Part shown: one piece after another, positions 14,801 through 53,700 of the stretch
Numbering within the stretch: the first letter of the stretch is position 1
How the letters are laid out: every line of letters begins with the position of its first letter
Assembly (NCBI GenBank): GCA_963924565.1
Contig: OZ004615.1
Span: 6,200,001 to 6,264,000, forward strand
Length of the DNA: 64,000 nt
Direction: 5' to 3'
Origin: Ascidiella aspersa
Taxonomy: Eukaryota
Translations under genes and position numbers: made by a program
Notes under the pieces: model-generated
The model's input: only the letters and a program-made list of their open reading frames with translations
What the model was told of the DNA's origin: nothing
Database searches by the model: none

Positions 14801-17800
14801 TCAGCACGTTGTTGCTCGAGCTTTAAAAAAGTTATAATAATGAAGAAGGTGCTAATGCAGGGATGTCCAACTCAAACATGCCGACGTGCCAATTTTTATC
14901 TTATAACTTGTTCCTGTGCCAAAGTTTAGTAACTACTTTCAAATATTACAAGCACTTTTTAATGAGTAATAAAAATGCTTATTTGCATGTGAAAAACATT
15001 TCTTTATTTAATCAAGCAAACCATTCATATTTGACAAAAAGCTTGTATAGGCTGATTATGCGAATGCTAGCCTCCACTACAGTATAATGTTATAATATCC
15101 GAAGTAATTGTTAGTTGTCGTAATTGTAGCAATATTGCTTAATATTGCTTAATATTGTGAATAAACAATGGCAATTGGCTGTATAACAAATTTAGATTTT
15201 TTTGACAATTGGCTGAATAACAAATTAAGTACTTTGGCTAGGGCTTGCGTGCCATTTTTTATTAGGTCGCATGCCACATTTGGCACATGTGCCGCAAGTT
15301 CGAAACCCCTGTGCTACTCATCCAGGTAATCTTTTAAAAATCCTAACTAAAAAGGGCATGAATGTTTTTTTTCTACCATTGTTAAGTTCAAACAGTTGGC
15401 CTTTGTTTAAACACAAATTGTTCACTGCTGAAAACATAAAACAAATTATTTACCTTTCTTGTACTAGGGTCGCCACCAAATTTCACTTGCTGGTTTACAT
15501 GCTGCACAAATTTCTGCTGTTTATTTCCTTTCTTGTTCTTCAAGCCAAAAGTTTTGTCCTGTGGATAAGATTATTAACAATACACCATCAATTTTTAATC
15601 AATTTCTGTGATTTAACTTTTAAATGTGTATTAAAAACCATGTGGTTTTGCTGTGGTATTAAACCAAAACGCTTTGGAAGGTTCAACTCAGAAAGAGCTA
15701 GATTTGTTTTGAGAAGGGTTAGTCCTTCCAATATATCCCTTAAAAAGTATATATTATCATACCAAAAGTGCTGTGTGCAATGAACGTTATATGACCACTT
15801 AAATGAAAAGTCTGAAAAGTTTATCAACAAACACCTAATGATTATTATCAACCCAGCATTGAAAGTAGGGATGTCCGATGAATAAAATACCAAATAAGAA
15901 TAATATCGGATCAGAGTTGCTACCTCATGTCAGGTGGTGCGATCTGTAATTATCCAATACTAGAGCATTACTTGTGCTGATGTAATACCAAATTAATATG
16001 GGAATTTCAGCCATGACATGTGTTTCAACCCAATGATTTCCATGTTTAAGGTTAAACAATCAAAAAATAGGAATAACAACACGATGTATTTGAAATTTTT
16101 AATTTCATAGTAATGACATTATTTTTTATTTGGTTGCAATATTATTTATTAGGGTTGGCAAGCCTGTCAATTGACCATACTTTTTTTAACCGGTCAAATA
16201 CTCATTTTGGATTCAAATGTTGTAAATTTGAGTTTTTAATAATCTTGATTGTAACTTTATTTAAAGAATTCAAATATGATATGGTAGGGTTTACCTGATG
16301 CAAACACATGATCTATGGTAATTAATAACAAAGTATTTGTAATAGCAAAGTAGATTTATTTTTGTTTAAAATAAATGCCTGATTGCATGTATATGATGAA
16401 TCGCGTTTGACTAAAAGGAAACACTAGCTGGTGTATACCACAATCTGAGGCTACTTAAAAATTTAGAAGAACCATATGCCTTATGTCCAGTGGACCCTGG
16501 TGATGATTTAGATCAGTGAGGTCCAACTACAGGCCTATGGCCAAAGTTGGCCCGCAAGTTACGCTGTTTTGGCCCGCGAACTGATAGTCAGCTTTTTATA
16601 TCACTTCAATTTTTGTTTTTTTGTTATTGTAATTGACAAAAGAAACAATGATCCTTTGTGGTTTGTAGCACCACTAAGCAAAAGTATATAAAATCACATG
16701 TAATGGAACATTTATCGTATTGCGTTAACTTAAAATGTGTTGCCGACCGTAGCTGAAAAAGCTGTAAATTCCATAAAGTTAGTATATACACCATAAATGT
16801 ATAAAGCAATAAGCCTAAGAATGTGGTGAGGAGTGAAAATATTTTTTTACTGATGCATTTATCTGTTGTTAAATTTCGGTAATAAACTTGTTGGCTTAAC
16901 TTACTACTGGTGGTTGTAGTAATTGTAAAATATACTACAATACTGCTATAGTATTGCTTGGAAGATGGGCATGGTTTTGCAAAAATTCTTATTGATAGTC
17001 AAAAAATAATTGTTTCTGTTTTATAAACCATTATACCTAAGCCAAAATGTTCATATATTTATTTAAAATTAAAATCAAGGTTTATGTTTAACTTCAATTG
17101 CATTAAAAATAGAGTTAGCTCCACCAGGCAACATATCAATAGATAGAAATCGCTCTTCTGGTGTAAACGAGGTATAAACCGGCGACATCTAGAATTATTA
17201 ATCTACGTTTTTTCAATTTTTTACTTCTCAGTATATAAGATGGCTAACGCACTCTCGTTTTAATTATTAACCCTGATGAGGTCAGTTGGTATCTGATGAC
17301 GAAACATCGGTTTATATTTTGTTTACACCAGAAGAGCGATTTCTATCTATTCAATTGCATTATGATAGTGTTTATAGTAATTGACCAATATTTGAGCTAT
17401 TTGACGAGTACTTGAACGGTCAATATTTTTATGGGCCGGATTTAATTTGACTGGTCAAATGCCCAACCCTATTATTTATACAAAGGTATTGGTATTGAAA
17501 CAAAATAAAGTATCAGACAATCCAAATTGGGAGTATATCAAACACATTCAAACTATTAATATTTTTTTCATCCTAATCAGATACAAAGAAATTTATTTCT
17601 TATTTTAGGTATACAATAAGACTGTTGTATCAAGTAGTAAGTACACAAGATTGAGATTTCTGTAGGTTGTTTTGGGTAGCAAGTTTTGACAAAGTTTCAT
17701 AAGATTGTCTCCAAATCTTTCCGAATTCACATAATTCCTATAAATCCTTTCTGTCTTTTTGCCAGTCCCTTTATTTATTGTTGGTTGTGCAACAGTGCCT

Positions 17801-18162
17801 TGGTTCATATTCAAATAATTAAAAAGAAATTTGGTAAAAAACTAACTTAGTAATGCCAAATCAAAAAGAAGTTCGTGGATTATGGATACAAGACAGCTGT
17901 TAAACAATAACTATTTACATTTATTTAGATATACAATTAGAAAATAATAGTTAACTATTAACGTTAACTTCATCCACGTAAAGCAACGAAATGTAGTTTA
18001 ACACTACAAATGTTACAGCAGAAGTAAAAACAGTTCAGAGGAAGGCAGCATGGCGTTAGATTTAAACCACAACATTACTCCAAACTCTTAACTTACCTCG
18101 ATTATTTTGTCCTTTCGTTTTTGTTCGGTCTTATTGCTCGCCTTCTGTTTTTTCGGTGGCAT
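8856..18162 (-). CDS. ZC3H15: Zinc finger CCCH domain-containing protein 15 (DFRP1/LEREPO4, DRG1 partner), 414 aa. Exons 18162-18097, 15558-15454, 14820-14709, 14192-14040, 13794-13703, 13260-13175, 12588-12462, 12057-11941, 10955-10882, 9602-9469, 9034-8856.
   Basis: Spliced translation reads MPPKKQ...[15 protein letters not shown]...[28 protein letters not shown]...[21 protein letters not shown]...[10 protein letters not shown]...[12 protein letters not shown]...SGREVFEF...[17 protein letters not shown], matching ZC3H15 throughout. All introns are GT-AG and phases close (1245 nt). Confidence 0.96.
9095..9180 (-). ncRNA. Candidate degenerate C/D snoRNA, snR38/SNORD1-like, in ZC3H15 last intron
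   Basis: Perfect box C ATGATGA (9174-9168) is followed by GTTATCCTTGT, complementary (one G-U) to conserved LSU rRNA ACAGGGAUAAC. D' and D boxes are degenerate. Confidence 0.35.
9812..9885 (-). pseudogene. tRNA-like sequence (degenerate cloverleaf) within a repeat element, copy 1
   Basis: A box TAGCTCAGTTGG, D stem GCTC/GAGC, stem CGGTC/GACTG, B box GAGTTCGAAC, downstream T5 run. Acceptor and T stems have mismatches. Confidence 0.7.
9985..10385. mobile_element. MITE family with TAGGGATGTCCGAT termini and CCGATAC-rich subterminal repeats
   Basis: TAGGGATGTGCGAT...ATCGGACATCCCTA. Related pieces near 11550, 15866, 28544-28898, 29327, 35583 and 57630. Confidence 0.75.
11066..11383. mobile_element. 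Non-autonomous hAT (Buster-type) MITE
   Basis: TIRs CAGTGATTCTCA / TGAGAACCACTG; perfect 8-bp TSD CACTAAGG; homologous 3' part at about 43300-43430. Confidence 0.9.
14858..15311. mobile_element. Non-autonomous hAT MITE in ZC3H15 intron 2
   Basis: CAGGGATGTCCAAC / GTTCGAAACCCCTG; flanks TGCTAATG / TGCTACTC (6/8). Confidence 0.7.
17106..17349 (+). mobile_element. Non-autonomous Penelope-like/retrozyme-type insertion with inverted repeat
   Basis: 13-bp direct repeat TTCAATTGCATTA at 17093-17105 and 17350-17362. Inverted arms of about 45 bp at 17138-17184 and 17305-17351. Internal hammerhead motif. Confidence 0.7.
17265..17316 (+). ncRNA. Minimal type I hammerhead ribozyme fold, possibly degenerate
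   Basis: AACC-CTGATGA-G-GTCAG...TGAC-GAAAC-ATC-GGTT: conserved core boxes, stem I AACC/GGTT, stem II GTCA/TGAC, predicted cleavage after C17308. Confidence 0.65.
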
Positions 18163-18372: not shown

Positions 18373-21300
18373 ATGAACATGGATGGTAACGACATAAAAA
18401 AGAACAAGCACGTACGTGTGAAAGTTAACGGCGATGTTATTAGGTAAGGGTTTTCTTTTTTGCTGAGTGTTGTTAAGTAAGGTTCAAAACCAAGAAATTT
18501 TTTTATTTTGTATTGCTATTTTCCAAATAATATTTTCAAGGCTTAAATGCTAAAAAAAAGATTCATTGGCATACAATATCCCCTAAAATTAACAGCCTTA
18601 TTATAAAAATAATTTTTTTTGTTTGTTTTTGTTGTACTATTATATAAAAAAAAGTGATTTTTACATCCACATAAACATAGATTCTTTTTAGGTATAATCC
18701 TGGCCAAACTAGTGGGGCTGTCGGATGTTTCGTTATGGGTCAGACCCTCAAAGAAAACGGATATTTTGAAATCAAGATTCTGAATGCAGGGGAAGAAGGT
18801 ATAATGTGTTTGTTAATATTACTTCACACAGAACCGGTAATAAGATTGCCTACACTGTAAATTATATGCCATTGTTTATTGTACATTCCATTATACAAGT
18901 GTTGTTTTGTTACAGGGTTTATCTCAATTGGCGTGGTACCTTATGATCATGATATGGATTCAGAGCCAGGTTGGAGAGTTGGATCTGCGGCTTATCATGC
19001 TGAAAACGGAATGTATGTTCTTAGATGGGATTTAAATGTCTGTTAATAATTATTATAAACATTTTCAAAACACCTTTCATTGCTCTAAAATGGTCTGAAA
19101 CAGTGTCCAGTTTATTAATTTTTTTTCAAACTATTGATAAACATTTCAACAATTCTTTTCTGGAAAACCTAGTTTAGAAAAAATATGATTTGCCTAAATA
19201 AGTTGTGCACCATCTTAAAATAAAACTTGCTTACAGCTTAATATGAAACAAGATGATGTTAGATTTATTCCCTGACAATTACTTGCAATAGTATCTATAT
19301 TAATTTATTATTTTACAAACCCCACATATGACCATTCAGCTGCCCATGCACCACATAGAAAACCTTTCTGTAAAATGTTCTATTACGGTTAAGAACCTCT
19401 ATTAAAAAGCATATACATGGTATATTTTTAATCCATTTTGTTGGTAATAGTTTTTGGGATAAGTATTCCCTGTTTGTTTCAGCATCTATTCCAGCTCTGG
19501 TAGTTCTTGTCCAATTGGCCCACGGTCTCAGGCTGGGGACATAATAGGGTGCGGAGTAATGAAGATTGAAGAGATGCTGTTGACATCGCACATGGCCTCG
19601 CACAAGTCCGCTCAAGTCTACTTCACAAGAAATGGAGAAGATGTACTTTTTATCCTAATTTTTGTTTTGAACTTTATTTTTTTTAACTGTTGCTATCCCC
19701 TTTATTTTCGGCCTGTAAAATAATGTATAATGTTGGCAATTACCTGTTTTTGTAGCTATTTTTTTTTTAAATCTTGGTTATCATGGGTGCAACTTTTTTA
19801 AATATATATTGTTGTTTCGCTTTTAAATATTATGTTTTAACTTCCCATTTCTAATGCTTGCAATTTAACTCTTTTTAGTTGTTGCAAGCAATTAATAATA
19901 GTACCATTTGTAGCTTCAAAACTCCAGTTTTACTTGGTATTTTCATTAAATTTCAATTCACCAAAATTCAAACTTCTGAAAATTCCAGCTATAGCTTTGC
20001 TTTGTTTTTCTTCAGATTGGCCAATGCTTGTTGATGGTGCCTGGCCCTGTCACTGACCTTCATCCAGCCATTGGAATGCGCTCACCTGGCGAAGAAGTCG
20101 AAATAACGATTTACCCACAGAAATATGATGCCATACGCAACCTGGTGTCTGCTGTTGACGACTTGATGGTGGTCGACGGTGCTGAAGACGAATGGCTTAA
20201 AACTTACGACGTGAGAATCAATGGACAGGTAAACTAATTTGGTCCTGCTTTAGTTTATTTTTAGTTTCTCCAGTATATAACTCTGCCAAACAACTTCAAT
20301 ACAGTTGTTTCTGAAATGTTGTAGAAGAATATAGTCCACAACAGATTTGTTGCAATATTTACAGTCACATTATCTATAGATTTAGCAAAACAATTGTTTT
20401 CAGTGGCCTTATAGGCTACACCACCAATCTTCTACCCGTTTTGTTTGGTGTTAAGATGAGTTCCTTATTAGGTAGGTAAATTTAACAAAATATACATCAA
20501 AAAATTGGGACATACAAAATATACGTTAATCATTATGTTGCGCTCACCGTTGCCTTAATAACGTAGGTTACCTTTAACTGTAAACTAAAAAAATATTTCC
20601 AATGTTAAAAGCACTACAACACTGGTTTAGTAGTCATTTGAAAAACAATTTTTGTCCAAGTCAAGTATTTTGCCCTAAATAACAAGTCAAATCTTTGTTG
20701 GAGCAAGTTAAGTGATTAACAGAAAAATTGAAACGTTCAACTGTTTAAATTGGTAAACTTGTTCTATTATAAGCATCAACTAAAAATAACAAAACACAAC
20801 ATTTGGAAAGCAAACTGATTTATGGGCAAAACATTAAAGTCAAAAACACAATCTTTTTTAAATGCTCAATGAAACTAATTATTTTAACGCAAGTTATGGC
20901 TGTAATGCCTTGATTCCAAGTCAGGTAGTTTGTCCAAAACACTCAAGTCAAGCCAATTTTTTAAAAATACTTAAGTAAAGACAAGTGAAAACAGTGACTT
21001 AAGTGCACTTAAGTCCTGTATAACATAAACAATGCGAAACCTGTATAACACAAACAATGCAACTCTTGCGTATACAATATAATATCATTGTTTTTGACAA
21101 TATGATACCTTGTTTTTGAGCACTGCTTTTAATATGATATTATCGCACATTTCTGCTGGCACTTGTTCATGTCGCCTGGTGTTGACTGCAGATTGTGGAG
21201 TACACCGGTAACGGAATTCACATCCACGACGTCGGTCTCGCTCAAGGGAAAGTCCCCCTCACTACCACTTGCCATTATTTCGAGATGGAAATTCTGGAGC

Positions 21301-24300
21301 CGGGCGAGCATTGCTATATCGCGATCGGGCTTGTGCACAAGGTACGTTGTTGATTTCTAGCTTTTATAGACTGCCTGAAAAGCTTTTGTTAACATTTTCC
21401 GAATTCGAAAAGCTGTTTTTGTCTAATTCTAAATCTGGAAATCAGGTGTCACTGTTTTGTATGTCAACCCTGTAAGACGAATTTCAACATTATACAAAGC
21501 GGAGAAAATGGGCTCGTCTGATTTTAATAAATAATTTTTCACTCTGTTTTATTGCTCTGTGCCTTGCAGAACTACCCGCCCCACCGGCACCCAGGTTGGA
21601 ACATGGGTTCTATCGCTTACCACGCCGACGACGGCAAAATCTTTCTTGGTCGTGGACAAGGCTCGCCATTCGGACCAAAGTAAGCATTTGTAAACTTTCT
21701 GTTATGTGTAGATTACTGACCTTATCAGCTGCATCATGTACATGTGTGAAACTGTTAAGAGTTGATTAATCTTAGCATTTCAATAACCTAAATAACATAT
21801 GTGTCTAGAGCAGTGGTTCTTAACTCTTTGCCGCGTGAGTACGGTAAAAATGTTTAAATGTGCTCCGCAACCGGTGTGCCGCGGCATTCTTTGTCGCCGT
21901 AAGACCACCCCAACGTCACATTAACAGTGCCAAATCCCACTTGATTTACAGGTGTTACCGTGGCGACATCATGGGATGCGGGATCCTCTTTCCGTGTGAT
22001 TACGTCACGCCTAGCGACGGGGAGGAAGAGGAAGATGAAGATCTGGATGAAGAAGACGACGAGAAGCCGCTTCACATGCAAGGTGGGAATATAAGAAGAA
22101 GGGATCGCATCAAGGCGCGACACGCGACATTTAATCTTTAAGCGACACGCGACATTTTATCTTTAAGCGACTCGAGACATTTAATCTTCAAGCGACACGC
22201 GACATTTAAACTTCAAACGACACGCGACAATTTTAAAGCATCTCAAACACGAGATTTTTTGTTAGGTTAGGCAAGCGACCTTTGAACTAATTAGAAACGC
22301 TTTACGCGTTACGATCGAGCAACCAAACTGGATACTAACGTCTGTCTAATTCCTTAAATTGGTTTTACGTCTCGCATTCAATGTTGCTTCTTATCCGTTA
22401 ATAAACTACAGTATGTCGTAAATTCTGCAGACGGACAGGGAGCAGCCGGCGGGATGCAGGACGCCAACGACATCCTGATCGACCTCCTGGATGATCTGGA
22501 CGACATCGACACGGACGAGGAGGATGATCTCGTGTGGCCGATCTGGAGGAAGCTTGACGACTTCCGACCTGGAAGAGGCGACGAGGATTTGCTCGATGAC
22601 GTGCCGCTTCCCTACCCAGTCGGAGCAGGGCCTGGCAACGTTGAGGAGCGCAAGAGAAGGATGATCAACGTAAGTCGGTGTTTTTATAGGGGTGCTCGAA
22701 TCCATTTCGCTCTTATAGCCACCTTGCCTATTCTAGGAATTATGTTGACGCGCAGCAAATACGCCTTTTTGTTCCGTTAGAAAACAAAAGGCAAATAAAA
22801 AAGATTTATTAGAAGTGAAGGCATGACTAAATCCTAAATAGCTTCAATAGTTGCCCAGAAATGGAAGCATTACATCATACAGATATTTTTTGCTTCCTTA
22901 AAAAACGTCTTTTCCCTAGAGCAGTGCTCATCCTCGGATCCTTACCTATTCCCGATGCCCTATGCTGGTAGTGTCGGTAGTCGCCTTATACAACGGTGGT
23001 AACATCCGAATCGCTTTGTTTTGTTGGTCACGAATCCACGATCGATTGCGGGGCAATGCGGATAGTAGCGATGTCGCTTTATGCTTGTATTTGAATTTGC
23101 TTGTGCGCAGTGGTTCGAGGATCCCCTTCAGCCGCCCCCTGGGATGTCGCGCAAGATTTGCGGCATGATGTCGCGTCGCGGAAGACCCTCGATCGCCAAC
23201 ATCTACGGACGCAAGGGCAAGGGTCTTATGGTTAAGGTGGGCGCAGTGTTGTAGCGACCTAAACGCGCTTTATCACTTCTCCGTTTTCGAACGACTGACC
23301 TTACTTTACGATTTGGGACAGAATGAAGTTTTACTCAGCCTTAAATGAGTTGACTATTTTGTAGTGACCTAAACACACTTATTCACTTCACCGTTTTTAA
23401 ACGATTGACTTTGCTTTACGATTTGGGATAGAATGTACTTTTACTCGGCTTTAAATAACTATTTTAAAAGGTATAGTATTGTTGCGAACTAAACGCGCCT
23501 AATCACCGTTTTTCAATGATTGACTTCACTTTACCATTTAGGACAGAATGACTTGATTTACAACTTTTACTCGAAATCAAGTGAGTTAACTATTGTAATA
23601 ACTGGTGCTGTAGTTGCCTAAACACATTTACTTACTTCATCGTTTTTGAATAATTGACATCGCTTTCCAATTTGGAACAGAATAACTTTATTTAAATATT
23701 TTAATCGGAATCAAGAGTTGGGTATTTTAACAGTTTCGTTGATTTGGTTGCAAAATGACTTAATACAATAATGAGGGCGGGCGATCTCCACCAGTATAAG
23801 AACAAGCGCCCGTTTTAATTGCAAAGTAAAAGAAAATTTAAAATGTCGAAACCTTGTAAAACGAATGAGACTGACTTCTGATATTCTACCGCTGCTCTAT
23901 AAGTATATTTCAAAGGCCACTTAAAGAGTTTAAGACACAGTTTCCAAAACAACAAAGTAACCTATAGTACCAGACGACTACCGATACCACCACAGTCCAC
24001 CAGTATCAGATATCGATTTCAATTATGCGATATATATGCGGTCCAGGACGGTATTCGGGTTAAATAATTTTTGCAGGTATTTCGTGAAAACATTTTTTCA
24101 CCAGGTCATCCCGCCATGTTATGAATGTGTTTGGACTGATTGCATATTTGTCCACTAAATCGAACGATAACCTTCGCTTTTCTTTACTTACTTGTTTTAC
24201 ACGTCTCGTTATGACGCAACTTTGTGAAGTTTTGTCTAAAAAATTGTATGCGTTTTGGTACAAAAAAAATCTTCGTTCCTCTAAGATAGTTAAAAAAAGT

Positions 24301-24886
24301 AACTACCTTAGTTAAGATAGGAACTATCCTACCGGAGCGACGAATTTTTTTACCAGAGCGCATAATTTTTTTTAGCTATTCTACTTTCAACCGTGAGTTA
24401 AACCTATTCTCAACAGAAGGGCGTTTTAGGAATCCAAAACCATTGACAGCAGGTTTCTGTTTGTCGATCACTGTGCCACTGACGCGTATATAAACAAACA
24501 ATAAAACTCAAGTTTAAAAACCTGAGTAAAACCAGGATCAGACCTTTTTAAAAGGAATATATATAATATCGCCTGTGCTGGCATCGCAGTTCCTTATTCA
24601 AATATAATTCTAAGCGAAAAGTATATTCCTTTAAAAAAATGTCTGATGCCATGGTTTTACTTGTTTTTTCAAACTTTGAGTTTTTTTGTTTGTTAATCTT
24701 GCGTAAATCAACCCACAGCTTTTCGATAGTATTTTTGGAATTTAATTGCAGGTGTTCTTCACTCGCAACGGACGTCGCGTCGGCCTGAAAGAAGTCATGA
24801 TGCCTAAGGGCGGTTTCTACCCCTCGGTGGGAATGCTCAGCCTCAACGAGAAGGTCCGCGTTGACCTTCGACCTCTCACCGGGTGA
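18373..24886 (+). CDS. SPRYD3: SPRY domain-containing protein 3 (two SPRY/B30.2 domains), 512 aa. Exons 18373-18443, 18692-18798, 18916-19012, 19483-19642, 20016-20228, 21192-21341, 21570-21679, 21952-22082, 22431-22669, 23111-23236, 24752-24886.
   Basis: Spliced translation includes YFEIKI, PGW...SAAYHAENG, GDIIGCG, VYFTRNG, PAIGMRSPGEEV, DVGLAQ, HYFEMEILEPGEHCYIAIGL, RHPGW..GSIAYHADDGKIF, CYRGDIMGCGILFP, and VFFTRNG...GGFYPSVGMLS.NEKVRVDLRPLTG-stop, as in SPRYD3. Phases close (1539 nt). Start could be 18373 or 18379. Confidence 0.94.
22116..22232. repeat. 25-bp minisatellite, about 4.5 copies
   Basis: Unit AGCGACACGCGACATTTAATCTTTA, head to tail, no spacers. Confidence 0.9.
23247..23735. 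repeat. Degenerate tandem repeat, about 110-130 bp x4
   Basis: Recurring TGTAG.GACCTAAAC.C.C...CCGTTTT...ACGATTTGGGACAGAATG...TTTTACTC unit. Confidence 0.85.
24238..24745. mobile_element. Two adjacent foldback/MITE-like inverted repeats (24238-24372 and about 24430-24745)
   Basis: AAACAAACAATAAAACTCAAGTTT...TCAGAC.TTTTTAAAAGGAATATA is mirrored by TATATTCCTTTAAAAAAATGTCTGA...AAACTTTGAGTTTTTTTGTTTGTT. A second hairpin pairs AAAATTGTATGCG...GATAGTT with AACTATC...CGCATAATTTT. Confidence 0.7.
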
Positions 24887-24999
24887 CGCGGCAAAAGGTC
24901 AAAGGTCGCTAACACTAGTTAAGTTTATTCGAACAAGGGACTGGCGCTGTTGTACAATAGGCATCCGCAGCTTTTCGTCTTTGTAACGTTTACTTAGAC

Positions 25000-29723: not shown

Positions 29724-32700
29724 TCAGGAAATGTGGGCGTGGCCGCCCTCGTTGGGCTCGCCCACACCGCTGTCCCTGTGCCGCGGCTTCTCTTCAAAAA
29801 CCTCCGGAAGACTAAAGCTGAGGTCCTCATCGTCGGAAGAGGCGCACGAGGTGTTGCTCGACCTGCGCTGCGCCGACGCGTAATCGCTCGACGGCCGGTC
29901 GTCGGACTTCGGGAAGCTTCCGGGTTTCCGCGGCGTTTCGGCGCTCGAGATCCCGCGGTTTCGTCCGGCGCGTCCTGGGCTCGTCACGAATACGCGGATC
30001 TCGGCGCTGGTCGACTTGGGCTTGGGCGCGCCGATCAGTAGAGGCACGCTGGTGCTGCACGCGCTCGCAGCCAGGGTGCATTTGCCGTAGGGGGATTTCC
30101 CGGCGCCGGAGGACCCCGACAAGGTCTGGCTCCGCTCGCGGAAACCGATGCTGGCGTCTGTTGCGTCAATTTGCGAGTCTTCCTCGCTGAAGCGTCCCAA
30201 GCGTCCGAACTTGTGCGACGACGGAGGCACGGCCAGATGCTCGTGACTGCCGAACGAGCGGATTCCGCTGCTGGTCGAGGGTTCGCGACACGCGGCAGAT
30301 ATGGTGCGCCGCTGTCCGATCCGCTGCAGAACGCGCTGACTGCTGGATCCCACCAGCGACTGCGTAAGACAGAAAAGTTGGACTCGATAAAAAACATTTT
30401 TTTTTGTAAACGAATTAATATCTATTCTTGCTTTTCGTTTGATGAGTTTATATAATATATTTTTCGCTTATGGTTGCTGTTATATTTCCTTGAATAAGAT
30501 TACCCGAATATAGGTAATCGAAACGTTGTTTGCCGGAAGAGCAATTTTACAATTATTTCTAAACGCTTGAGGTAAAAGTTCTGGTTTAAATGTCGTGGAA
30601 ATTTTAAAAAGCGAAACAATACCATGTGTTTGTTATGTGTTTAGTCGATTCCAATGCTGTACCGGAACTTTCAGTCAAATCAATGCTATACACTTTGACG
30701 TTAAATGCTAAAGTCAAACGCAACTATTTTAATTTAAACAAAGATACAGCCTGAAGCCTGAACTTAATGTCAAATGTATTTTATGTAAACGTACTCTATT
30801 TCCAACATGGCGACGATTTTTTGTTTAACTTGATAGTTAAGTCGAGAAACAATTTCAAAAAAAGAGACGGGCAATCGAGATTTCATTTACCACCTTTAAG
30901 TTTTGTTTAAATCGCTTTTTAAATCGATTCAGGCAACACTAGTGTTCAAATCGCAAATATTTGGTGTTAAAATAAATATTCAATGAATATGCGATTATCA
31001 TCAGTAAACTGACACTCCAAAGACTTCCTAGCGATGCAGGCAAAAAATTGAAGGGTTAATGTACTGGTGAGTGCGAAAATTATAGTGTTGTAAGCAAGTT
31101 TTGAAATGAGTGAAGTCCTTAAGTAAAGTATTTTTAAATAACAAGTAAAGTCACAGTCCAAGCTATCAGTTGCCCAAGTCAAGTCCCAGTCAGGACATAA
31201 TTAAGGCAATTCACATCCAAATCCAGTACGTAGAACCAGTGTTGTTATTACTTAAGTCAATCACTTGACACGTGACTTGAAATTGACTGGCTCAAATTAT
31301 GACTTGACTTAGGCAACTGATGACTTGGACTGGGACTTGACTTGATATTCATTTAAAAAGACTTGACTCAAGTTATTTTACAAATGACTGGGACTTCATT
31401 TTAAAATAACTCGTTTACAACACTGCGTCGAACTATTAAAACTAGTAAACCTGTCCTGTTATGAGCAATAACTCGACAAAAACGCAACATACAGCAAGTT
31501 AATTGTTTTATGTGCAAAATTAAGATAAATAACCCAGTTTTATAAAATATTGCGAGTGGAATAACCTTATTTCAGCCAAAGTCATTTGTGCAAAAGACTT
31601 GAGTCAAGTCAAGTAATTTTACCCAAATGACTTGTGTTATGTCAATTCATATAAAAACAGTGACTTAAAGTCATACCACACTGGAAAATTGTTTGCCATT
31701 TTTGCAAACAAAAAACAAACTAAGTAGAAATTCACTGCACTTCAGGTAAGCACTGATATTAAATTGCATTTGAACTTAATACGAATTTCGTACTGTATGT
31801 TCGAAATCAACCCGGTAATCGTAGTTACGAAAAAAAAGTCTCTTACGTCAGGATGGGGGCTCGGCTTTTTGCTGCTGCAGATAGACAGCTGGTTGCTTTT
31901 CAGGTGGTTCCCGTTGTTGTGCTGCCCCTGGGTGGGGCTCGTGATCGACCCCTGGTGGCTGCATTTGCTCCACTTGTTTTTCTGACTCCCGTGTTTCACG
32001 CTTTTACCTAAAACAACACACAGGGGTCACCAAACTTTTTTTTATTAAGAGCTGGAAAGCTGTCAGAACTGAGAATAGCGGGTCGGAGATCCAGTTTTGT
32101 GTCTAATTTGCTTGAACTGCCTATTCCAATTCAATGAATGAATAAAAACAATTTATTTTTCAATAAATAAAGTGAGCTTTATAAAAAATTCGGTTAGTTT
32201 AATTTGGGTTTTCATCCGATAAATGTTTCTGATGAAATACTATTAATAACCTTTAGCATGATTAAAGGCTAAATTCCGTGGGGCCAAAAAACTTTTTTTT
32301 TAAAGAACAGAACTATGGAAATGTAATCAATATAAAGGAAAATGGTTTACTGCTTAGTTTACGAATAATAGGCTAAAAATCTGTACAGCTGAAATGAACA
32401 CGAAGCGTTAATAAAATAGATTCCTCGTTTTGGTAGAATTGGGTTTATTTTCCTTAATTATGTTTTTTAGGTAACTATAGGCTTTGCTGTTGGCATTTAC
32501 CACAAACTAAAATCTTGTGTATAACACAGCCTTCAAATTATTACCTGAAATTCGCCGCCGGAACTCCGAGAAAGCTCCCCTTGAGTTTCCATGATGTTGG
32601 CTGTCGCTCGAACTGTCAAGCTCCGAGGCTTTCATGTTTCGCACCAGAACCTGAACGCAACGCAAATGAATCTCTTCGGTTAATTATTTTCTCGGCAATG

Positions 32701-38700: not shown

Positions 38701-41700
38701 AAATGGAAAAATTATTCCACAATATAAAACATACGTGTTTATATAATTTTTACTTGTCGATGCCTATGTAGTAAAAACTTTAAACCCGGTTACGAAACAC
38801 TGGCTTACAGTCTACGACTCTAGGACTCTTAGGACTCTCTAGGGCAGTGGTTTTCAACCTTTTTTCTCTCGTGGCCCATTTTCGTTGCACAAAAATTGTG
38901 TGGCTCAATGATTTTGATAAAAGAACAAACTATAAAAAAGGTTTGGAACAAAAAATAGCGGAGCATATATCAAAACAGATTATTTATTCAACCGTGTATT
39001 AGGGAGGTACTTGCTTCTGAACAATAAATTTACGTTTCATTTACATTTCTTCTCAATTCCTCCCCCAAGCAGTTATTCCTGTAAAATTAAGTATAGTGTA
39101 TATACACAGATGAAACTAAACTCTTTAATAGTTCTAACTTTTTTAAATTGGTCTGTGGCCCACCTCAAAAGTTTCCATGGCCCACCAGTGAGCCACTGGC
39201 TGAGAACCGCTGCTCTAGGAAGTAAGCAAATATACAAGCCATTTGAGCGTCACAAAATAATTAGTATCTTAAATAAATATGGAATATAACAAAAAATATT
39301 GAATGGTTTTAGTCCTTACGCAAAATAAAACAACCAACAATCATTAGATTTGTTGACTGGTTTTAAATATTAACTGATTCAAAAGCATAATTATCGTTTT
39401 ACATTCTATTGTATGCGGGAAATTCCTTAGATAAGTGTTTCGGCAACAATGTTTAGATTACGACCCTAAGTAGATTGTGTGTGAAATCGCGTAATTCGTA
39501 ACATTGAGTTACCAGATATATAAGATGTAAGTCAATGTAATTAGTGACGTAATGATTCTCGAAAATTTAAGAAAAGCCAGATAAAATGGGCCAACAACCA
39601 AATTTCATTCCAATCGGTCCATTCGGAAATCTACAAGCCGCAACTGAAAATATACCGAACGAAATATTTTTCAATTCTTTTTGTTGGTAGAAGCCCGATA
39701 ACAGGAAATAATAGCTTCGAGTACACAAATTGCCGCAATACGGCCAAATATAGGTCAAAGGCACAAGTTTACGTTCGTTGGTTTCTCAACGCCCACGCAC
39801 TGATGGTGAACTTTAAGTCGAAGTGCTACAAATAAAAAACAGATTGATAATGAATTTAAAAATCAAAAAGGTCGAGTAAATCGTCATTATCTTTGAAAAA
39901 CCTCTAGACACGTACTTGTATCAATATCAGTTAATGTGACATCGATTTACTCGACCTGTCTGGCCTTGATATTCGTTATAAAGCTACATTACAGATCAGC
40001 GGATATTGTACCTAAAAAAAAAACAGTTCTGCTACGGATATATCAAATGACTTTATAAATATTATTTTTTTTTTGGTTAATTTTGTTTTTCGGTTGACGC
40101 CCATACGCCATTATATAAACTGGCGCTAATTTTTTGAGAAAATACTCGAAAGCTACAACATGTAAGTGCCAACATTAGGCTACATTTAATAGTCTGAAAG
40201 TAAAATAATGAACTGGACTCTTTTTTTGTTTTTGAAAGAGTTTAGCGTCGAAATTAGCCAATGCTGCCAATCAAAGCAATGTATTCTTTAAAAAACAATG
40301 TCGAAATTTGAGATGTGCCTATTTTTACATTTATTTTGGAATACGTTTAAAATTAATAAATTAAAAAAATGTAACATAGTAGCATTGTTTTCTGACCATT
40401 TGAACTGCCGACCCCAAACCAAGCACAACTTCGTCGAAATAGCTCGACTGACGCAAAGTGCGCATCGGCAATTAGCGCAGGAACAATTCGTTATCGCGAT
40501 CGGGCCAGGGCTGATGGTGGGGGGCAAAGTGGCCAGACACTCGATCAAACCGCCTCGCCACCCTCGCATCGCAGGGGGTGCACAGCACTGTACAACTCCC
40601 AATGCGTCAATGTCGCCAGGGGTGCGATCATTACTGTCCGTCGTGCTTGCAATCAAGCCAGGCGCGCTTCTCACAAATGCACACTTAGCTTTGTGTCCGC
40701 CTTTCGCCGAGCCCATGCAATGCATGTACCATGGGCAATTTGCGGCGCCAAAGATTCGGGAATCGGGCTACGAACAGGGTTTCTGGGCCTTTTGAGCACT
40801 GAGAGTTGGCCTGTATGACACATCGCTAAACATTTTTTTCTGTGATTTGTCTAGCATGATCGGAACCTGTTTTACATACTGCCTTTGGTAAAAAAGAAAA
40901 TTATAGAGCCCTCAATTTTAAAAGACAGACCTCAAATTATAATTAGCAAAAATACACCTGACCAACAACAAGCGTATTTAGTGGTTTCTACAGCCATGTA
41001 TGTTCCAAGGCAATTTACGGCTCCAAACATCCGGAGATCGGGCTACGAACAGGCTATTACTGGGTGTTCGGGCATTGAGTGTTGGCTGTACGGCACAGAA
41101 GCTGTGATTTGTTTAAGTATATGATCGAAGAACATTTGGATCATTGGTTCGCAACCTGTTTTACATAGGCCTCCGTTAAAAAACAAAGTTATGGGCACCT
41201 CAATTTTATAAGACAGGCGTCAAATTATAATTTTGCAAAAATACACCTACATATTATATAAAGACAAGAAAACTTTTAAAAACAAAAGAAAGTTCAAATC
41301 TAAAAAATTACGACCCAAGAACTATTGTCGTACATAAGTAACAAAATCCTTTCCGTACCAAGTGTAAAATTAACTAAGAGGAGTTGTCCATTTTCCAACC
41401 TTGTATTATTTATAAAATTTCCTCATGAGATAAAAAGCTGCGTGAGTTCGCAATAATTTGAAATTGAATCGGCATCGCTATTGTCAACGAGTATTTGCGG
41501 TCATCAGCTGTCTGTAGTTCAATGCAGACTAAACATATAGGCGAAAAGCATACTTTGAATAACCTAAGCGCACTCAAGTTACTGTTTCAAAAAAACAAAT
41601 GACTTGTTTACAACACTGCCGTTAACGCGATTGGTAGATCTGTGTATCGAAGTAAGTTATCGCGTAAAAGCAGTGAGTCAAGGGCTCTTAAAACACTTTG

Positions 41701-44700: not shown

Positions 44701-47700
44701 AACAGGTTGCGACTCATCCCATTTCTACATAAAACGGAACCCCAGGCCCCAGAGTTCCCATGTAGGGGCAATCAGGCATCAACCCTCACCTGTTATCGTG
44801 TCGAGCAGGCACATCCGCCTCCCACGTACCACGTGATACTCCCCAACGCCAAATATGGGCAGCGTGGTTATGATGAAGACAAAGCCGCAGGCGGAGGGCA
44901 AGAGCACCTTGAGGATCTAAAAATAAATCAGGGTTTGAGATCAGCTTCATTAGAGTTTTACTGAGACAAAGCTAAATGCACGACAAGCTGCCCGTTTTAA
45001 ATGCATAAAATACTGTTCATAGACGCTTTCCAGACTGCCTTTAAAGTTTTCTAAACCGACTCTTTGGCGGGCATGGACAGAGATTCAGAAACTTTTTAGT
45101 CAGCGGTATCGTTTAGTGTAAAACAAAACTGTTCTCGCTGTATGCAGAAACAGATACTATGTAACTTAGTCGGCGATAAGTATTAAAAAAAGTATTGAAA
45201 AACTCGAAATTGTATTATGTGTATTCTGTGATCAGGCCTTTTTCGAGACATTCTGGCCAAAGGTAATGGCGCACATTATGTGGTACACCGGATGCCTTTG
45301 GAAAAGCTTACCGAAATCAATCAACCAGATCGGGATTATGGTGCAAGTCAGGCCAGGCTAGAAAAACAATTAGCCTGCGGCGAGGTTCGAACTCACGACC
45401 TCCGGACCGTCGCTCCACCAACTGAGCTCCACAGGCTAATAGGGAGGCACGTCGAGAAACGACAGAAAGCACCATTGCTTGGTGCATCCTAATCGTACAA
45501 CCTTGGGGTAATTTTCTAGCCTGGTTTTACACTATCATCCTGACCAGACTGATTGATGTTGGTAGGTGTTTCTGAAAGCATCCATTGTGTTATAATATGG
45601 GAGTGGGAGATGCCCTATAATGCTAGGAAGTTTCGAATTAGAGTAATGTTTCTAAACGTTGGTTCTAGTGTGATTTAAATCCCGCCTTAAAAGGGCTGTG
45701 AATGAAGAAAAACCGGCAGTAGTAATGCAACCTTGTTTCAAATCTCAAATTGTATTACAAGCAATCGACGACCTAATTATTGTTAAGTATCCTGGCAATG
45801 GTCGTGAGACCGACAGGGCGAGGTCAAGGTCACTCTTCAACAACAACATCAGCACTTCTACGGCGGCATTCGCTGCTGCCACTACAATGCTATAAAAGGG
45901 CGGACCGAACTGTTTCTGCGTTGCGCGGTTTGCACGTTATCTGGGCCATGGTCCAGGTCCAATCTCACTGCCGGCCGAAGGCGCTTTAATTTGGCCGTGA
46001 GTGTTTTGCAAACAAGGCATTTCAAAATTAATTAAGTTAGAGTCAATTTAAAATGACTGGTGTAAAGCCATTTTCAATAAAACTTATTGCTTTAATAAGT
46101 TCATTCCATGTTTAGTCATTTGCATCAAAATTAATTTCATTGAAATAAATTTTAACGTTTAATATTTAAGATCATTAACCAATTTATTACGAAAAAGATT
46201 TCCAATTAAAACACTCGTGATTAATGTAAGTCATTTCGCCTAAATGACTCAAATCCAAGTCAAGTCATTTGTAGAAATTCGTTGGCATACCGTTGGCGGG
46301 ATTTTATACGCTGTAAGCCCGCAAGCGTAGTAAACAGATTGCCCTTAAAGCTACATAGCGTACAGGGAGACATAACCGCCCAAAGACCTTGCAAGGCTTC
46401 GCTCAATGTGCGACCTCTGGGGAAATTAAACGCTACAAAAATATCACTTGCAAATCGCAACGTCTATTACTGACAAATATCAGAAGATTTAATTGGCTCT
46501 AACATGTATAAATTAAGAGATGCGTGTTAATTTGTCGACGGCGACTAGGCAGTACTACGCCCTAGAATTGGAATTAAGCCTGTTGAAACACGGTTTAAGC
46601 TTGTTACAAGTTAAAAGGTGCTCATTTGGTAAAACGGGCGTCTGATGATTTGACCTCTCAATTTTTCAGCATTGAAATTTCTAAGCGCTGGTAAATATAT
46701 TAAATATTAGCTCGTGTGCTGGACATAAGTCCACGACGTTATTTGAACAAAAACAAATACGCTCGTTCATTACTGCTTACGTATAACGTCAGATAAAAAC
46801 ATGGGAAGTATACAATATTAGGGATTTAATATTGACAAATCTTAATTTTACTCGCGAGGGACTTTCGATTAAAGCGGACTAATTGCAGCAAAAAAGGAAG
46901 TAACAAGTATTATATTAAATGTACAGCAAATGAACGCACATTGACTTTGTGTCTAGTTGGTTTGTTGATGGGCGGAAAAGGGGAGTAACCGCAACTCCAT
47001 TTGTTGGCGTAAGTTTTTAAACAAGCTCATTACGAGGCCGAATTCGCCTAAGAGAACCAACAGCGATTGGCGAAGGATATTGGAGCAATACGGCAGCCTC
47101 ATTTGAACGACCTGGATCGCCTCCAAACACCCTTGGCTCGCTGTATTTAGCGTGGGAAAACTTGCGAGGTGATTTGATACGGATAAGGGCTGGTGCAAAG
47201 CTGTGAAAGCAGACAAAAACACACAAGCAACAGACGGGTGTGCAAGATTTCAGCGGGTCATCGGCAGGTGATTACTTGAAATAGATACTACCTAATACCT
47301 ACAGTGAAACAAATTCAGTAGCCTCTTACAATTTTTTTTGTAATCAAGCAAAATACACAATTTACTGTGTTTTGTGTACAAAGATATTACACAGCAAATT
47401 GAAATAAAAAATGCTGTTTTTTTTCTGCTGTTGGCTTTGGAAGGCAAACCGTTGTCGCTTTTTTAAATTTATTTGTTTCTTCCGAAACAGCTTTTTAGGT
47501 CAAACGCGTCTCTTTTCAGGTTAAACGAAGGGCACCGGCTCCGAATTCCCTGATGTTTGTAAGATAATCATGGCAAAGATAAAAGCAAGATAAGTTATAA
47601 CGCCATGGATTCGTCGCAGGAAAGTGTCAACCACGGAATCGGCAAACCCTTCTGGGAATCGCGAACCGATCGAGAAGAAAGATGGAAGGGCACTGGGAAC

Positions 47701-50700: not shown

Positions 50701-53700
50701 GGTATCGTCCAGTATTTTGTGACACTTGCCGGTTTCAACAACTAATAGAAACACAAATTTGTTGGCCAAATTTGTGTCGTTTTATATTTGTCAGTTACCG
50801 TATTAAACGATCAAAAATATTTTGCCCAAAACTAACTTCGTAACAGGACGTCTAAAAAGAGAAACCTTAGGAAACCGGAGGTTATATTTAGATGTCGTAT
50901 ACACAGTCATGCAACTGAAATGTTGGTTAAATATACATTTAGGGAGATGACGGGATGGCCTGAAATAGTGCAGTGGTTCTCTAACTTTTTTAGATGATAT
51001 CAATTGGATGGGCGCACTTGCTTCTTTGCTATCAGCTCGGCTATGTTAACCTCTAACGAATCACTTTTTTGTGTGAAGCAATCACGAACAGTTTTTAAAA
51101 CCGTGACCATACAGCTCACAGTGGCAGCGCAGCAAGCTGTAAAAACGTAACTTTCATTAGCACAATGCAATACTATGACGTCACAATGGACAATTCAACT
51201 CAAAGTGTAAGTGAATGAGGAACTAATCATCTTGCTTTGGAAAAGTAAGTTTCCTGAATTTTTTGTGCACAAGAGGTTTTCTTCTTCAGGAGCGTCGTTT
51301 TGATTTTTTGTTGGGTGCTTGGCGGTCTCAGAAAATTATCTCGCGGACCCTAAAAGGACCGCGGACCCCAGTTTGAGAACCACTGGGTTAGTGCTATACC
51401 TTCCTAGATTATACACAACGCTCAAGCGAAAACATTTAACACAATGAAATTCAGAGGACGGTCCGCTGTTTTTTACCTCGAGTTTGACAAGAAAAGCGCC
51501 GCACGGCAACCACACAGGCAGATTTGGCGTGATTGAAATAAATGTCAACAAGCCACTCTCGCGCTATAGCTAGCCGTCATATGCGCGAGCGTTGCGCGAA
51601 AATGACAGGCGTCGCTCTTGGGTTTCTCAAACCGCTGATGCAGCGAAGGGATGCGCGGTGTCGGGTTTCGTGTACGCTAAATGCGCGCAAAACCAATGTT
51701 ATCACGTCGCCGAGGCCTTGTCTTTACAACGGCCGCTACGAAAGGCGCGGGCGGTCAATTTCGTGTCTTGATGGCCAATTTATATGGCCACGCTGTGCTG
51801 TTCCCAGTCAAGTCATTTGTAAAATAACTAAAGTACAGGTCCAGTCTTTTAAAAATATAAAATCACGTCAGAGTCAAGTCAACATAAGAGCAAGTTAACT
51901 CAAATTAATTTAAATTGCTGACATTAAAATAAAATGATAATCCATTAAGATTGATAAACTTGGTCGATTATTATGAGCAATAACTCAACCAAAAAAATAA
52001 CCTGTAGCAACTTAATCGTTTTATGTGCAACAATTGAGATAAATAGTTTAAATGTATAAATGGTAGCTCCCGAAACAGCAATCGGTCGCGTGTTTTACTT
52101 CCAGCTCAAAGAGCAAGAAAATAATCCCGGCAAACAGGGAACATGAGGCTTTTATAATGGCCATAAAAGGTGGCCTCCTGACAACAACCTCGTCAACTAC
52201 AAGCACTCGTGTCTAATCTGGTTCACAGACTAAAACAAAACCTTGGCGTATGATAGACACTTCCCATATTCTCGCCAGCTAGCTTTTTTAGATAAAACAG
52301 TCAGCTAGTAGTCATTTTTTAAATACAATGAACGCTTTATCGCATTTATGACCGGTGGCCGCTTAGCAAAAGCCAAAGCAAAGTAAATGACGTGTATTAC
52401 GCCTGATCCGATCGTAGGCTTACTCCTGAAAATACCTTGGGCGAAATGAAGCATGTTGGCATTTGTGTAACACCGTCTCTGAAACATGCGACAATAATTA
52501 AAAGACAGGGAATAGTGAAGTCCATTTCGCAAACAGAAACTAAACAAGTAATCCTTTCTGTTGTTTAAATGACGCCGTGGAAGACATGAGATCATAGACT
52601 TGCAAATGGTTATGAAACACTCCAGCGCCCATATTGCAGTAATCAAACGAAAAAAAAGTTATGCACTCAAATTGCACGTCCACCAATTTACATTGTAATT
52701 TTTATTCTGCTTTTAGTAAATCACAAATCGGTATAGGCTGTATTATGTCCTTTACCTCCAGGAAACAGAATACTTTAGTAAGACCGACGGGCCAGTGACC
52801 CATAGACAGTCATAATTATCGAAATACGCTAAACACACCAAAAAATCGCGTTTCGCACCTTCAATCCCAGGTTGCTCCTGTACTTGAATGGCTGGTAGAG
52901 GGCGATGACGCGGTCGAACGCCATCAGAATGGTTATGAGAGGCGAGACTAGGAGCAGAAAGAGGGCCATGAAGCCCATGATGCTGCAACTGACGGCACCT
53001 CCCAGCCATACGCAGTCGGGGTCCGCAAAGGCAGGCATCACCATCAGGAGAATGCTCTGCAACGCAAAACGTCAAACTTCTAAACTCTTTTTGTATTATT
53101 CTTATGCTTAAACTACAAGATTAAAAGACGGACGAGAATACAACAAAGCACCTAACAATATCACCAGAAGAGCGATTTTTCACTAGTAATATTTTGCCTG
53201 GTGAAGCTAGTGCTATATTTACAACTAACTTTTAGGTTTCATTTTTTTTTGAAGAATTACATTTGGTGACCGAAACGGCCTTTGCAAATACTAGAACGCT
53301 ATAGTGTTCAAGACCCTGGACAATGGGTAACCTTAAAATACCAAATAGCGTGTCCTTAAGGACTTTTCGTAAAGCAGAGTTGCCGACATTAGGCTACATT
53401 GAGTTTTCTGCATCAGTCCGTTTAATTTAGTCCATACTACAGTACAGTTACTCTCTTTGTTGCGTCACAGTGTGCAATTATAGCTCTTAATTGTGCTTTG
53501 TTTGAAATCCTGACAGCCCTTTAAAATAGAAAAAAATCCCTGTTGAATTTATCTTCATTTATATAGCTTTGAGATTCCTTTGCAGCGAATTTCAACCTTG
53601 CATGTTTGCCAAACGTGGACTGCGACCAATTTTTGTAGAATTTTTCCCGCCATTGAACTGTTGCGGGTCCCTGTCTGGATTAAAGGCCAGCAACAGTGGA

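Follow-up and report, generated by a model that had tools for sequence, protein, structure and literature searches.

The window analyzed here is a 64,000-nucleotide stretch of contig OZ004615.1 from Ascidiella aspersa. On its minus strand lies a gene whose first exon (18162-18097, encoding MPPKKQ...KIIE) is separated from exon 2, beginning at 15558, by an intron spanning 15559-18096 that begins with GT and ends with AG. Exons further down match the zf-CCCH and DFRP_C domains, and from this domain content and general knowledge we take the gene to be ZC3H15/Tma46-like. It stands head to head with a plus-strand SPRY-domain gene (about 18700-24900) a few hundred bases away, which matches Pfam SPRY only at E 0.16 and is presumably SPRYD3-like.

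Intron 1 carries a 244-bp insert between two 100% identical copies of the 13-bp direct repeat TTCAATTGCATTA (left copy, 17093-17105; right copy, 17350-17362), as the initial annotation had described; 13 bp is also the modal target-site duplication of the family to which the insert belongs. Within it, two inverted stretches of 44 nt (17138-17181 and 17308-17351) are 93% complementary, and the insert folds strongly (z = -10.9, with 0 of 200 shuffles as good) because of this inverted repeat.

The right, direct arm (17182-17349, plus strand) is the last 168 bp of a Penelope-like element (PLE), a 5′-truncated pseudo-LTR running from -126 to +41 relative to the predicted hammerhead cut (position 0/+1) and ending there without a tail. 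It contains the annotated TATA-like box TATATAAG (17232-17239), which is also present in the full-length copy described below and would act as the promoter of the pseudo-LTR, and a decayed minimal type I hammerhead (17269-17312) with its predicted cut after 17308. The left, inverted arm (17106-17181, minus strand) spans the element from the cut as far as the tail end at +76 (mapped 0..76) and is 95% identical to the full-length copy over 82 nt. Comparison with that copy identifies its tail (17106-17137) as the first codons of the element frame (ATG at 17134, MLPGGANSI). An inverted copy at the left end, starting at the cut, had been noticed before; the copy is real, but it starts at the equivalent of C17308, one base before the cut, and it is longer than described, including a 32-bp tail missing from the right arm. 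The insert is a 5′-truncated, head-to-head copy of an autonomous PLE, a decayed member of a new family within a known class.

The hammerhead lies on the strand opposite the host gene, antisense to it as first reported. The insertion should leave the host gene unaffected, because the host's RNA is antisense to the hammerhead and no ribozyme core is present in the arm that shares the host's orientation; in itself, the insertion is ordinary mobile DNA in an intron. Elsewhere in the window, an older fragment at 53162-53221 (plus strand), 80% identical, comprises the post-cut and tail stretch without a hammerhead. Other dispersed repeats, GACTT-rich and of the GGCCCAC type, are common to the flanks of the full-length copy and to the window, where they lie at 31103-31426, 39005-39211, 41597-41619, 46228-46271, and 20632-20688.

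The parent element and its hammerhead

A search of the species' own 308-Mb genome gave at least 95 matches among the 40 of 828 candidates that were scored. Exact-pattern counts returned 175 hammerheads, 158 tails, and 322 post-cut stretches, while reversed controls returned 0. Upstream of the motif, most copies continue into a frame ending ...YEIPCGGCSATYIGETKR...EH...FIES...MN...SSL. A protein search located a full-length copy (L051, C3:7.035-7.038 Mb) arranged as pLTR, 815-codon open frame, and pLTR; its frame comprises 790 aa from the first M, its hammerheads lie 2633 bp apart, an inverted tailed arm is present at its left, and TTGATATTTTTT stands at both ends.

The 790-aa frame contains an RT domain (RVT_1, E 2.9e-8, above the cut-off) and, by reading, the motifs YVDD, DKG, and AVY...CxxC...YIG...H...H. 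Pfam GIY-YIG gave no match to this frame at E≤1, and a PDB sequence search with the element frame returned 0 matches. Its GIY-YIG motifs align with a sister frame that itself matches Pfam GIY-YIG weakly (E 7e-4), and on the motifs read and this alignment we assign a C-terminal GIY-YIG endonuclease with CCHH. By eye, the linker between RT and endonuclease contains no CX2-5CxxC zinc finger, a feature that marks the Penelope/Poseidon clade according to the portion of PMC8557442 available to us. The family is probably of the Penelope/Poseidon type, an assignment made from layout and linker reading. With its single RT frame, pseudo-LTRs in direct and inverted orientation, and a 30-40-bp tail at one end, it has the makeup of an EN+ PLE. 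The Penelope-like origin suspected at the outset is borne out, as the same sequence forms the 3′ end of an autonomous RT plus GIY-YIG element, and both further copies and that autonomous partner, including the full copy on C3, are present in the genome. A more distant Penelope family (27% identity; L261 at C4:6.27 Mb, L262 at C9:23.49 Mb, and L263 at C3:10.34 Mb) has open frames of 816-843 codons and includes a tandem array with a period of 2671 bp; the hammerhead motif pattern found no match in these three loci.

The insert had instead been assigned to a non-coding PLE-derived mini-family, a reading that did not survive; nor is it a retrozyme. A non-autonomous, retrozyme-like mini-element spreading as its own small (circular) RNA would suit the short size, the hammerhead, and the duplication, and a 2026 preprint (10.64898/2026.07.22.740005), in the part accessible to us, derives animal retrozymes from Penelope pLTRs. 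Among 70 two-arm insertions, however, there is no common unit: breakpoints are scattered and differ from copy to copy, which argues against any mini-element family. The copies run into the coding frame, the motif is of the minimal rather than the canonical type, and none of the 204 stretches mapped contains monomers with a hammerhead repeated head to tail; the fixed tandem units, free of any coding frame, that define retrozymes were not found in this family. We therefore regard such a mini-element as highly improbable.

The motif in the window reads AACC CTGATGA G GTCAGTTG GTAT CTGATGAC GAAA C A T C GGTT, in the order originally given, with AACC at 17269-72, CTGATGA at 17273-79, helix II at 17281-17300, GAAA at 17301-04, C-A-T-C at 17305-08, and GGTT at 17309-12 (plus strand). 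An Rfam scan found no hammerhead model at E≤10, and the 71-nt hammerhead region folded alone adopted a fold other than the hammerhead, no better than shuffles (z = -0.26), so the motif call draws on relatives and on between-family covariation. The family form is CTGATGA G GTCAGCTG GTAT CTGCTGCC GAAACGTC. The core (CUGANGA and GAAA) is intact in 129 of the 163 arms spanning the motif, and CUGANGA, GAAA, and CGTC are all intact in 116 of these; CATC occurs in 2. This conservation inside the family reflects descent, not selection, because the family is young. Four more Penelope families with minimal hammerheads were identified (L264, L277, L270, and L278). Across 7 aligned motifs from 5 Penelope families of the genome, the core is invariant and six of the eight helix II pairs have changed on both sides; the covariation score, from 7 rows only, is 0.432 against 0.172 when shuffled (0/500) and at most 0.221 in slid controls. 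Conserved core and stem covariation in the family and its sisters thus uphold the earlier call of a minimal type I hammerhead. In the family of the insert, helix I runs without interruption (AACC/GGUU), whereas in sister families B and C it is broken after CC/GG. Families B and C also have a similar tail start (MPGSNS), and families C and E have GUU, not GUC, at the cut.

Helix III is ACGT in all five Penelope families, a palindrome that could allow dimer formation. In the window copy it reads ACAT and is not self-complementary, and helix II carries three further changes. Compared with another copy (L004), the right arm has 7 substitutions in 168 nt, 3 of them at CpG, including ACGT to ACAT. 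Together with the rarity of CATC in the family, these substitutions agree with the earlier proposal that GAAACATC arose from GAAACGTC by CpG decay. The hammerhead of the window copy is probably inactive, a prediction from sequence, because the change to ACAT removes the self-complementary helix III.

Arm ends and the predicted cut

Ends were mapped in 204 stretches, comprising 120 regions on C1, C2, and most of C3 (among the matches listed), 40 on C4-C5, and search loci; 11 duplicated or tandem stretches were removed before the two-arm count. The 3′ ends are bimodal, lying near +43 (+42..+46) and at +72..+79. Of 70 head-to-head insertions, 65 pair one tailed with one tailless arm, 3 have two tailed arms, and 2 have none, against 35 one-tail insertions expected (p 1e-14). 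Sister families follow the same rule in 27/28 and 14/14 insertions. A duplication of at least 10 bp flanks 44 of the 70 two-arm insertions and 0 of 69 shifted controls, with 13 bp as the mode (21/44).

Very probably, the insert is a short, 5′-truncated head-to-head insertion produced by two reverse-transcription events on a staggered 13-bp cut, its own hammerhead having since decayed. Of this explanation, what was observed directly is a parent element carrying RT and GIY-YIG motifs, arms of two types, the duplication, and the motif with its decay. In the proposed course of events, the element's endonuclease would nick both strands about 13 bp apart in the intron; the two cDNAs would have different starts, the tail end (+72..+79) and the short site (+42..+46), as found in vitro for an Anolis element (PMC11167929, sections available). 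Neither cDNA would be completed, and the two would be joined head to head through microhomology of 0-3 nt or by the addition of a few bases. This two-primer model was drawn entirely from end geometry; in the accessible text of PMC3846280, self-priming on an antisense template is proposed as an alternative.

Where the arms stop at their 5′ ends was counted in a set of 292 arms, with 16 duplicates and 9 internal-deletion arms removed beforehand; the count is conservative, since 2 of the 16 duplicates were true second arms at the cut. Ninety-nine arms start in -60..+12, and 21 of them start at 0..+3, where a uniform distribution predicts 5.4. Twelve starts fall at 0/+1 (2.7 expected), including 8 at +1, against 2 at -3..-1 and 1 at +4..+6. 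The arm start at the cut site that had been remarked on for the window insert is thus a recurrent feature of the family. On C1-C3, 11 of 61 starts fall at 0..+3 (p 4e-4), an interval chosen after these data had been viewed. On C4-C9 the figure is 10 of 38 (p 3e-5), with the window copy counted in and with part of the set coming from a query that starts at the cut and so favors arms reaching +1 over shorter, not over longer, ones.

As an independent genome-wide probe, we used 22-mers demanding a wrong base just before the start. The +1 probe gave 20 hits, which resolved into 7 read-through copies, 1 duplicate, 1 internal deletion, and 11 independent starts. A -3 control probe, richer in CpG and thus slightly handicapped, gave 2 hits and 1 start, and a +7 control probe gave 11 hits, of which the script marked 6 as starts and flank reading left only L399. 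Most arms pass through the site: among those reaching +3, 209 of 230 (about 91%) continue beyond the cut. Other excesses in the family lie at -9..-5, the entry to helix II (13 against 6.8 expected, p 0.018), and at -37 (5 starts). An apparent cluster of starts at -61 was set aside, since a deletion in the reference copy had contributed to it, and was remapped with another copy; a splice acceptor or trans-splice site at +1 was also discarded, as the upstream bases are GTC, not AG. Two single copies are also of note. In L374 (C3:27.197 Mb), positions -17..0 are missing precisely as far as the cut, with a GGT repeat on each side; in L379 (C6:1.03 Mb), a brief copy on the same strand precedes a new start at +1, a pattern resembling a template jump.

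The corresponding count in sister families B and C is 2 of 37 for 0..+3, with none at 0/+1; for the difference from the family of the insert, p is about 0.04. Their start hot spots are A/T palindromes at +7/+8 and +10/+12; families without a cut-site peak but with other hot spots make the uniform null crude. Many insertions of these two families are very small hairpins with almost perfect pairing, their arms joined at A/T palindromes that lie 7-12 nt past the cut (L282-L295, L325, L332, L333, and L357-L369).

One way to obtain joints at the cut site without cleavage would be for self-complementary sequence to anneal the two arms. The B and C hot spots, being palindromes where both arms meet, speak for such annealing, as do two insertions of the present family in which both arms end at 0..+2 (C4:3.97 Mb and C1:39.78 Mb). 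Against it, 13 of the 21 arms at 0..+3 have a placeable partner, and the ends of these partners are spread from +22 to -1250, with microhomology of 0-3 nt, while for the other 8 no partner was found; moreover, the ACGT palindrome is centered at -2.5, where starts are rare. In this family, palindrome annealing as the cause of the cut-site joints is largely refuted, and we consider it improbable. The insertion at C4:3.97 Mb exists as three duplicates (L193, L260, and L259 at C4:3.97, 4.03, and 4.10 Mb), with both arms ending at the cut and joined as AAACCGGTTT.

Another account is a structural stop: the obstacle to reverse transcription would be the end of helix I, a self-dimer of ACGU, or a pairing of ACGUCG with an upstream CGACGU, and the stalled cDNA would be joined at that point. 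The weaker excess at the helix II entry fits this account, and so does the continuity of helix I here, in contrast to the two families without the peak, B and C, where it is interrupted. The MFE fold, in addition, pairs the GAAACAUC region with upstream sequence. RNA reads point the same way: in 6% of one RNA run, the 5′ region of the full-length copy showed no pile of molecule ends at the cut. The 183 reads there were mostly read-through of other copies, and no circle-type joints were seen among them, in a library that may miss small circles. Loose read ends at the cut matched the genomic flank of a copy at C2:21.455 Mb and its C6 duplicate and are therefore not products of cleavage. Against a structural stop, reverse transcriptases generally stall on entering a helix from its 3′ side rather than on leaving it. 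Stalls would accordingly lie at +4..+8, whereas the observed peak is sharp and confined to 0..+3; helix III (ACGT) is also identical in B and C, yet no peak occurs there. We consider a structural stop possible but rather doubtful.

The reading that we tentatively favor is that the template was sometimes cut. The left cDNA of the window insert would have ended where it does because its template RNA had been cut by a hammerhead and the enzyme ran off the end; on the positions of the ends, we put this slightly short of an even chance. Against it, the window's inverted arm still has the C preceding the cut, a base that no microhomology accounts for and that requires one added or chance base. Weighing against it too are the missing peak in B and C, the large share of arms that pass the site, the RNA reads without a pile of ends, and the Anolis results (PMC11167929). 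More generally, the genome may keep a single-base record of in vivo cutting, affecting roughly 1 in 10 cDNAs that reach the site, with a dimeric enzyme priming two cDNAs from two nicks and at two start sites, sometimes on ribozyme-cut RNA; this wider proposal is as tentative as the last. If it is true, Penelope families would differ in cutting frequency.

Relation to known Penelope-like elements and retrozymes

The comparisons below refer to those parts of the cited sources that were available. The family shares with Penelope/Poseidon-type EN+ PLEs (PMC8557442) and Adineta Pen2/Pen2a (PMC3846280) a single frame with RT and C-terminal GIY-YIG, pseudo-LTRs with a TATA box, an inverted 5′-truncated copy placed head to head, a 30-40-bp tail on one end, and a target duplication. 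The duplication differs in size, with a mode of 13 bp here against 8-10 bp reported in Adineta (PMC3846280), and the one-tail rule, counted here in 65/70 insertions, appears as ‘often’ or ‘optional’ in the same two sources.

The hammerhead agrees with the minimal hammerheads of metazoan PLEs (Cervera and De la Pena 2014, PMC4209133) in its 8-bp helix II and 4-bp helix I, one unpaired base between 9 and 10.1, a G10.1-C11.1 pair, palindromic 15.2-16.2 without loop 3, and the occurrence of pairs on opposite strands 100-700 bp apart. That source describes low in vitro activity and no in vivo evidence for them, and its available text does not report the excess of genomic 5′ ends at the cut that we observe. 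In vivo cutting by minimal PLE hammerheads is treated as an open question in PMC4209133, PMC8557442, and PMC11167929. Among titles and abstracts, with low coverage of subscription journals and with supplements outside the scope, we found no report of genomic 5′ ends at a PLE cut; the supplements of PMC11167929 and PMC4209133 may bear on this point.

With the Anolis Poseidon element PAc (Frangieh et al. 2024, PMC11167929), the family has in common a tail that is bounded by two neighboring internal start sites and lies within the beginning of the frame, targets rich in A/T, and, as an activity shown for PAc and proposed here, nicking and extension on both strands. In PAc the frame starts at helix II; here the first in-frame ATG lies about 47 nt past the cut. 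No PAc reads end at the cut, and cleavage was not needed in vitro (PMC11167929), whereas genomic 5′ ends gather at the cut in the present family.

Animal non-LTR retrozymes (PMC7229834; 10.64898/2026.07.22.740005) likewise carry a type I hammerhead, with a likely common origin in pseudo-LTRs. Retrozymes, however, have canonical hammerheads and circular RNAs and consist of monomers of about 150-450 bp in tandem, whereas the window insert is dispersed, inverted, and truncated, and derives from a coding element.

An intact full-length copy and a sharp cut-site excess, beside sister families without one, allow a direct bench test and offer a cheap genome-wide assay, and the counted one-tail rule together with the 13-bp stagger constrains models of PLE integration. 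Layout, tail, and minimal hammerhead have all been published for known elements; what this family adds to them is the family-level excess of 5′ ends at the cut site and a counted one-tail rule.
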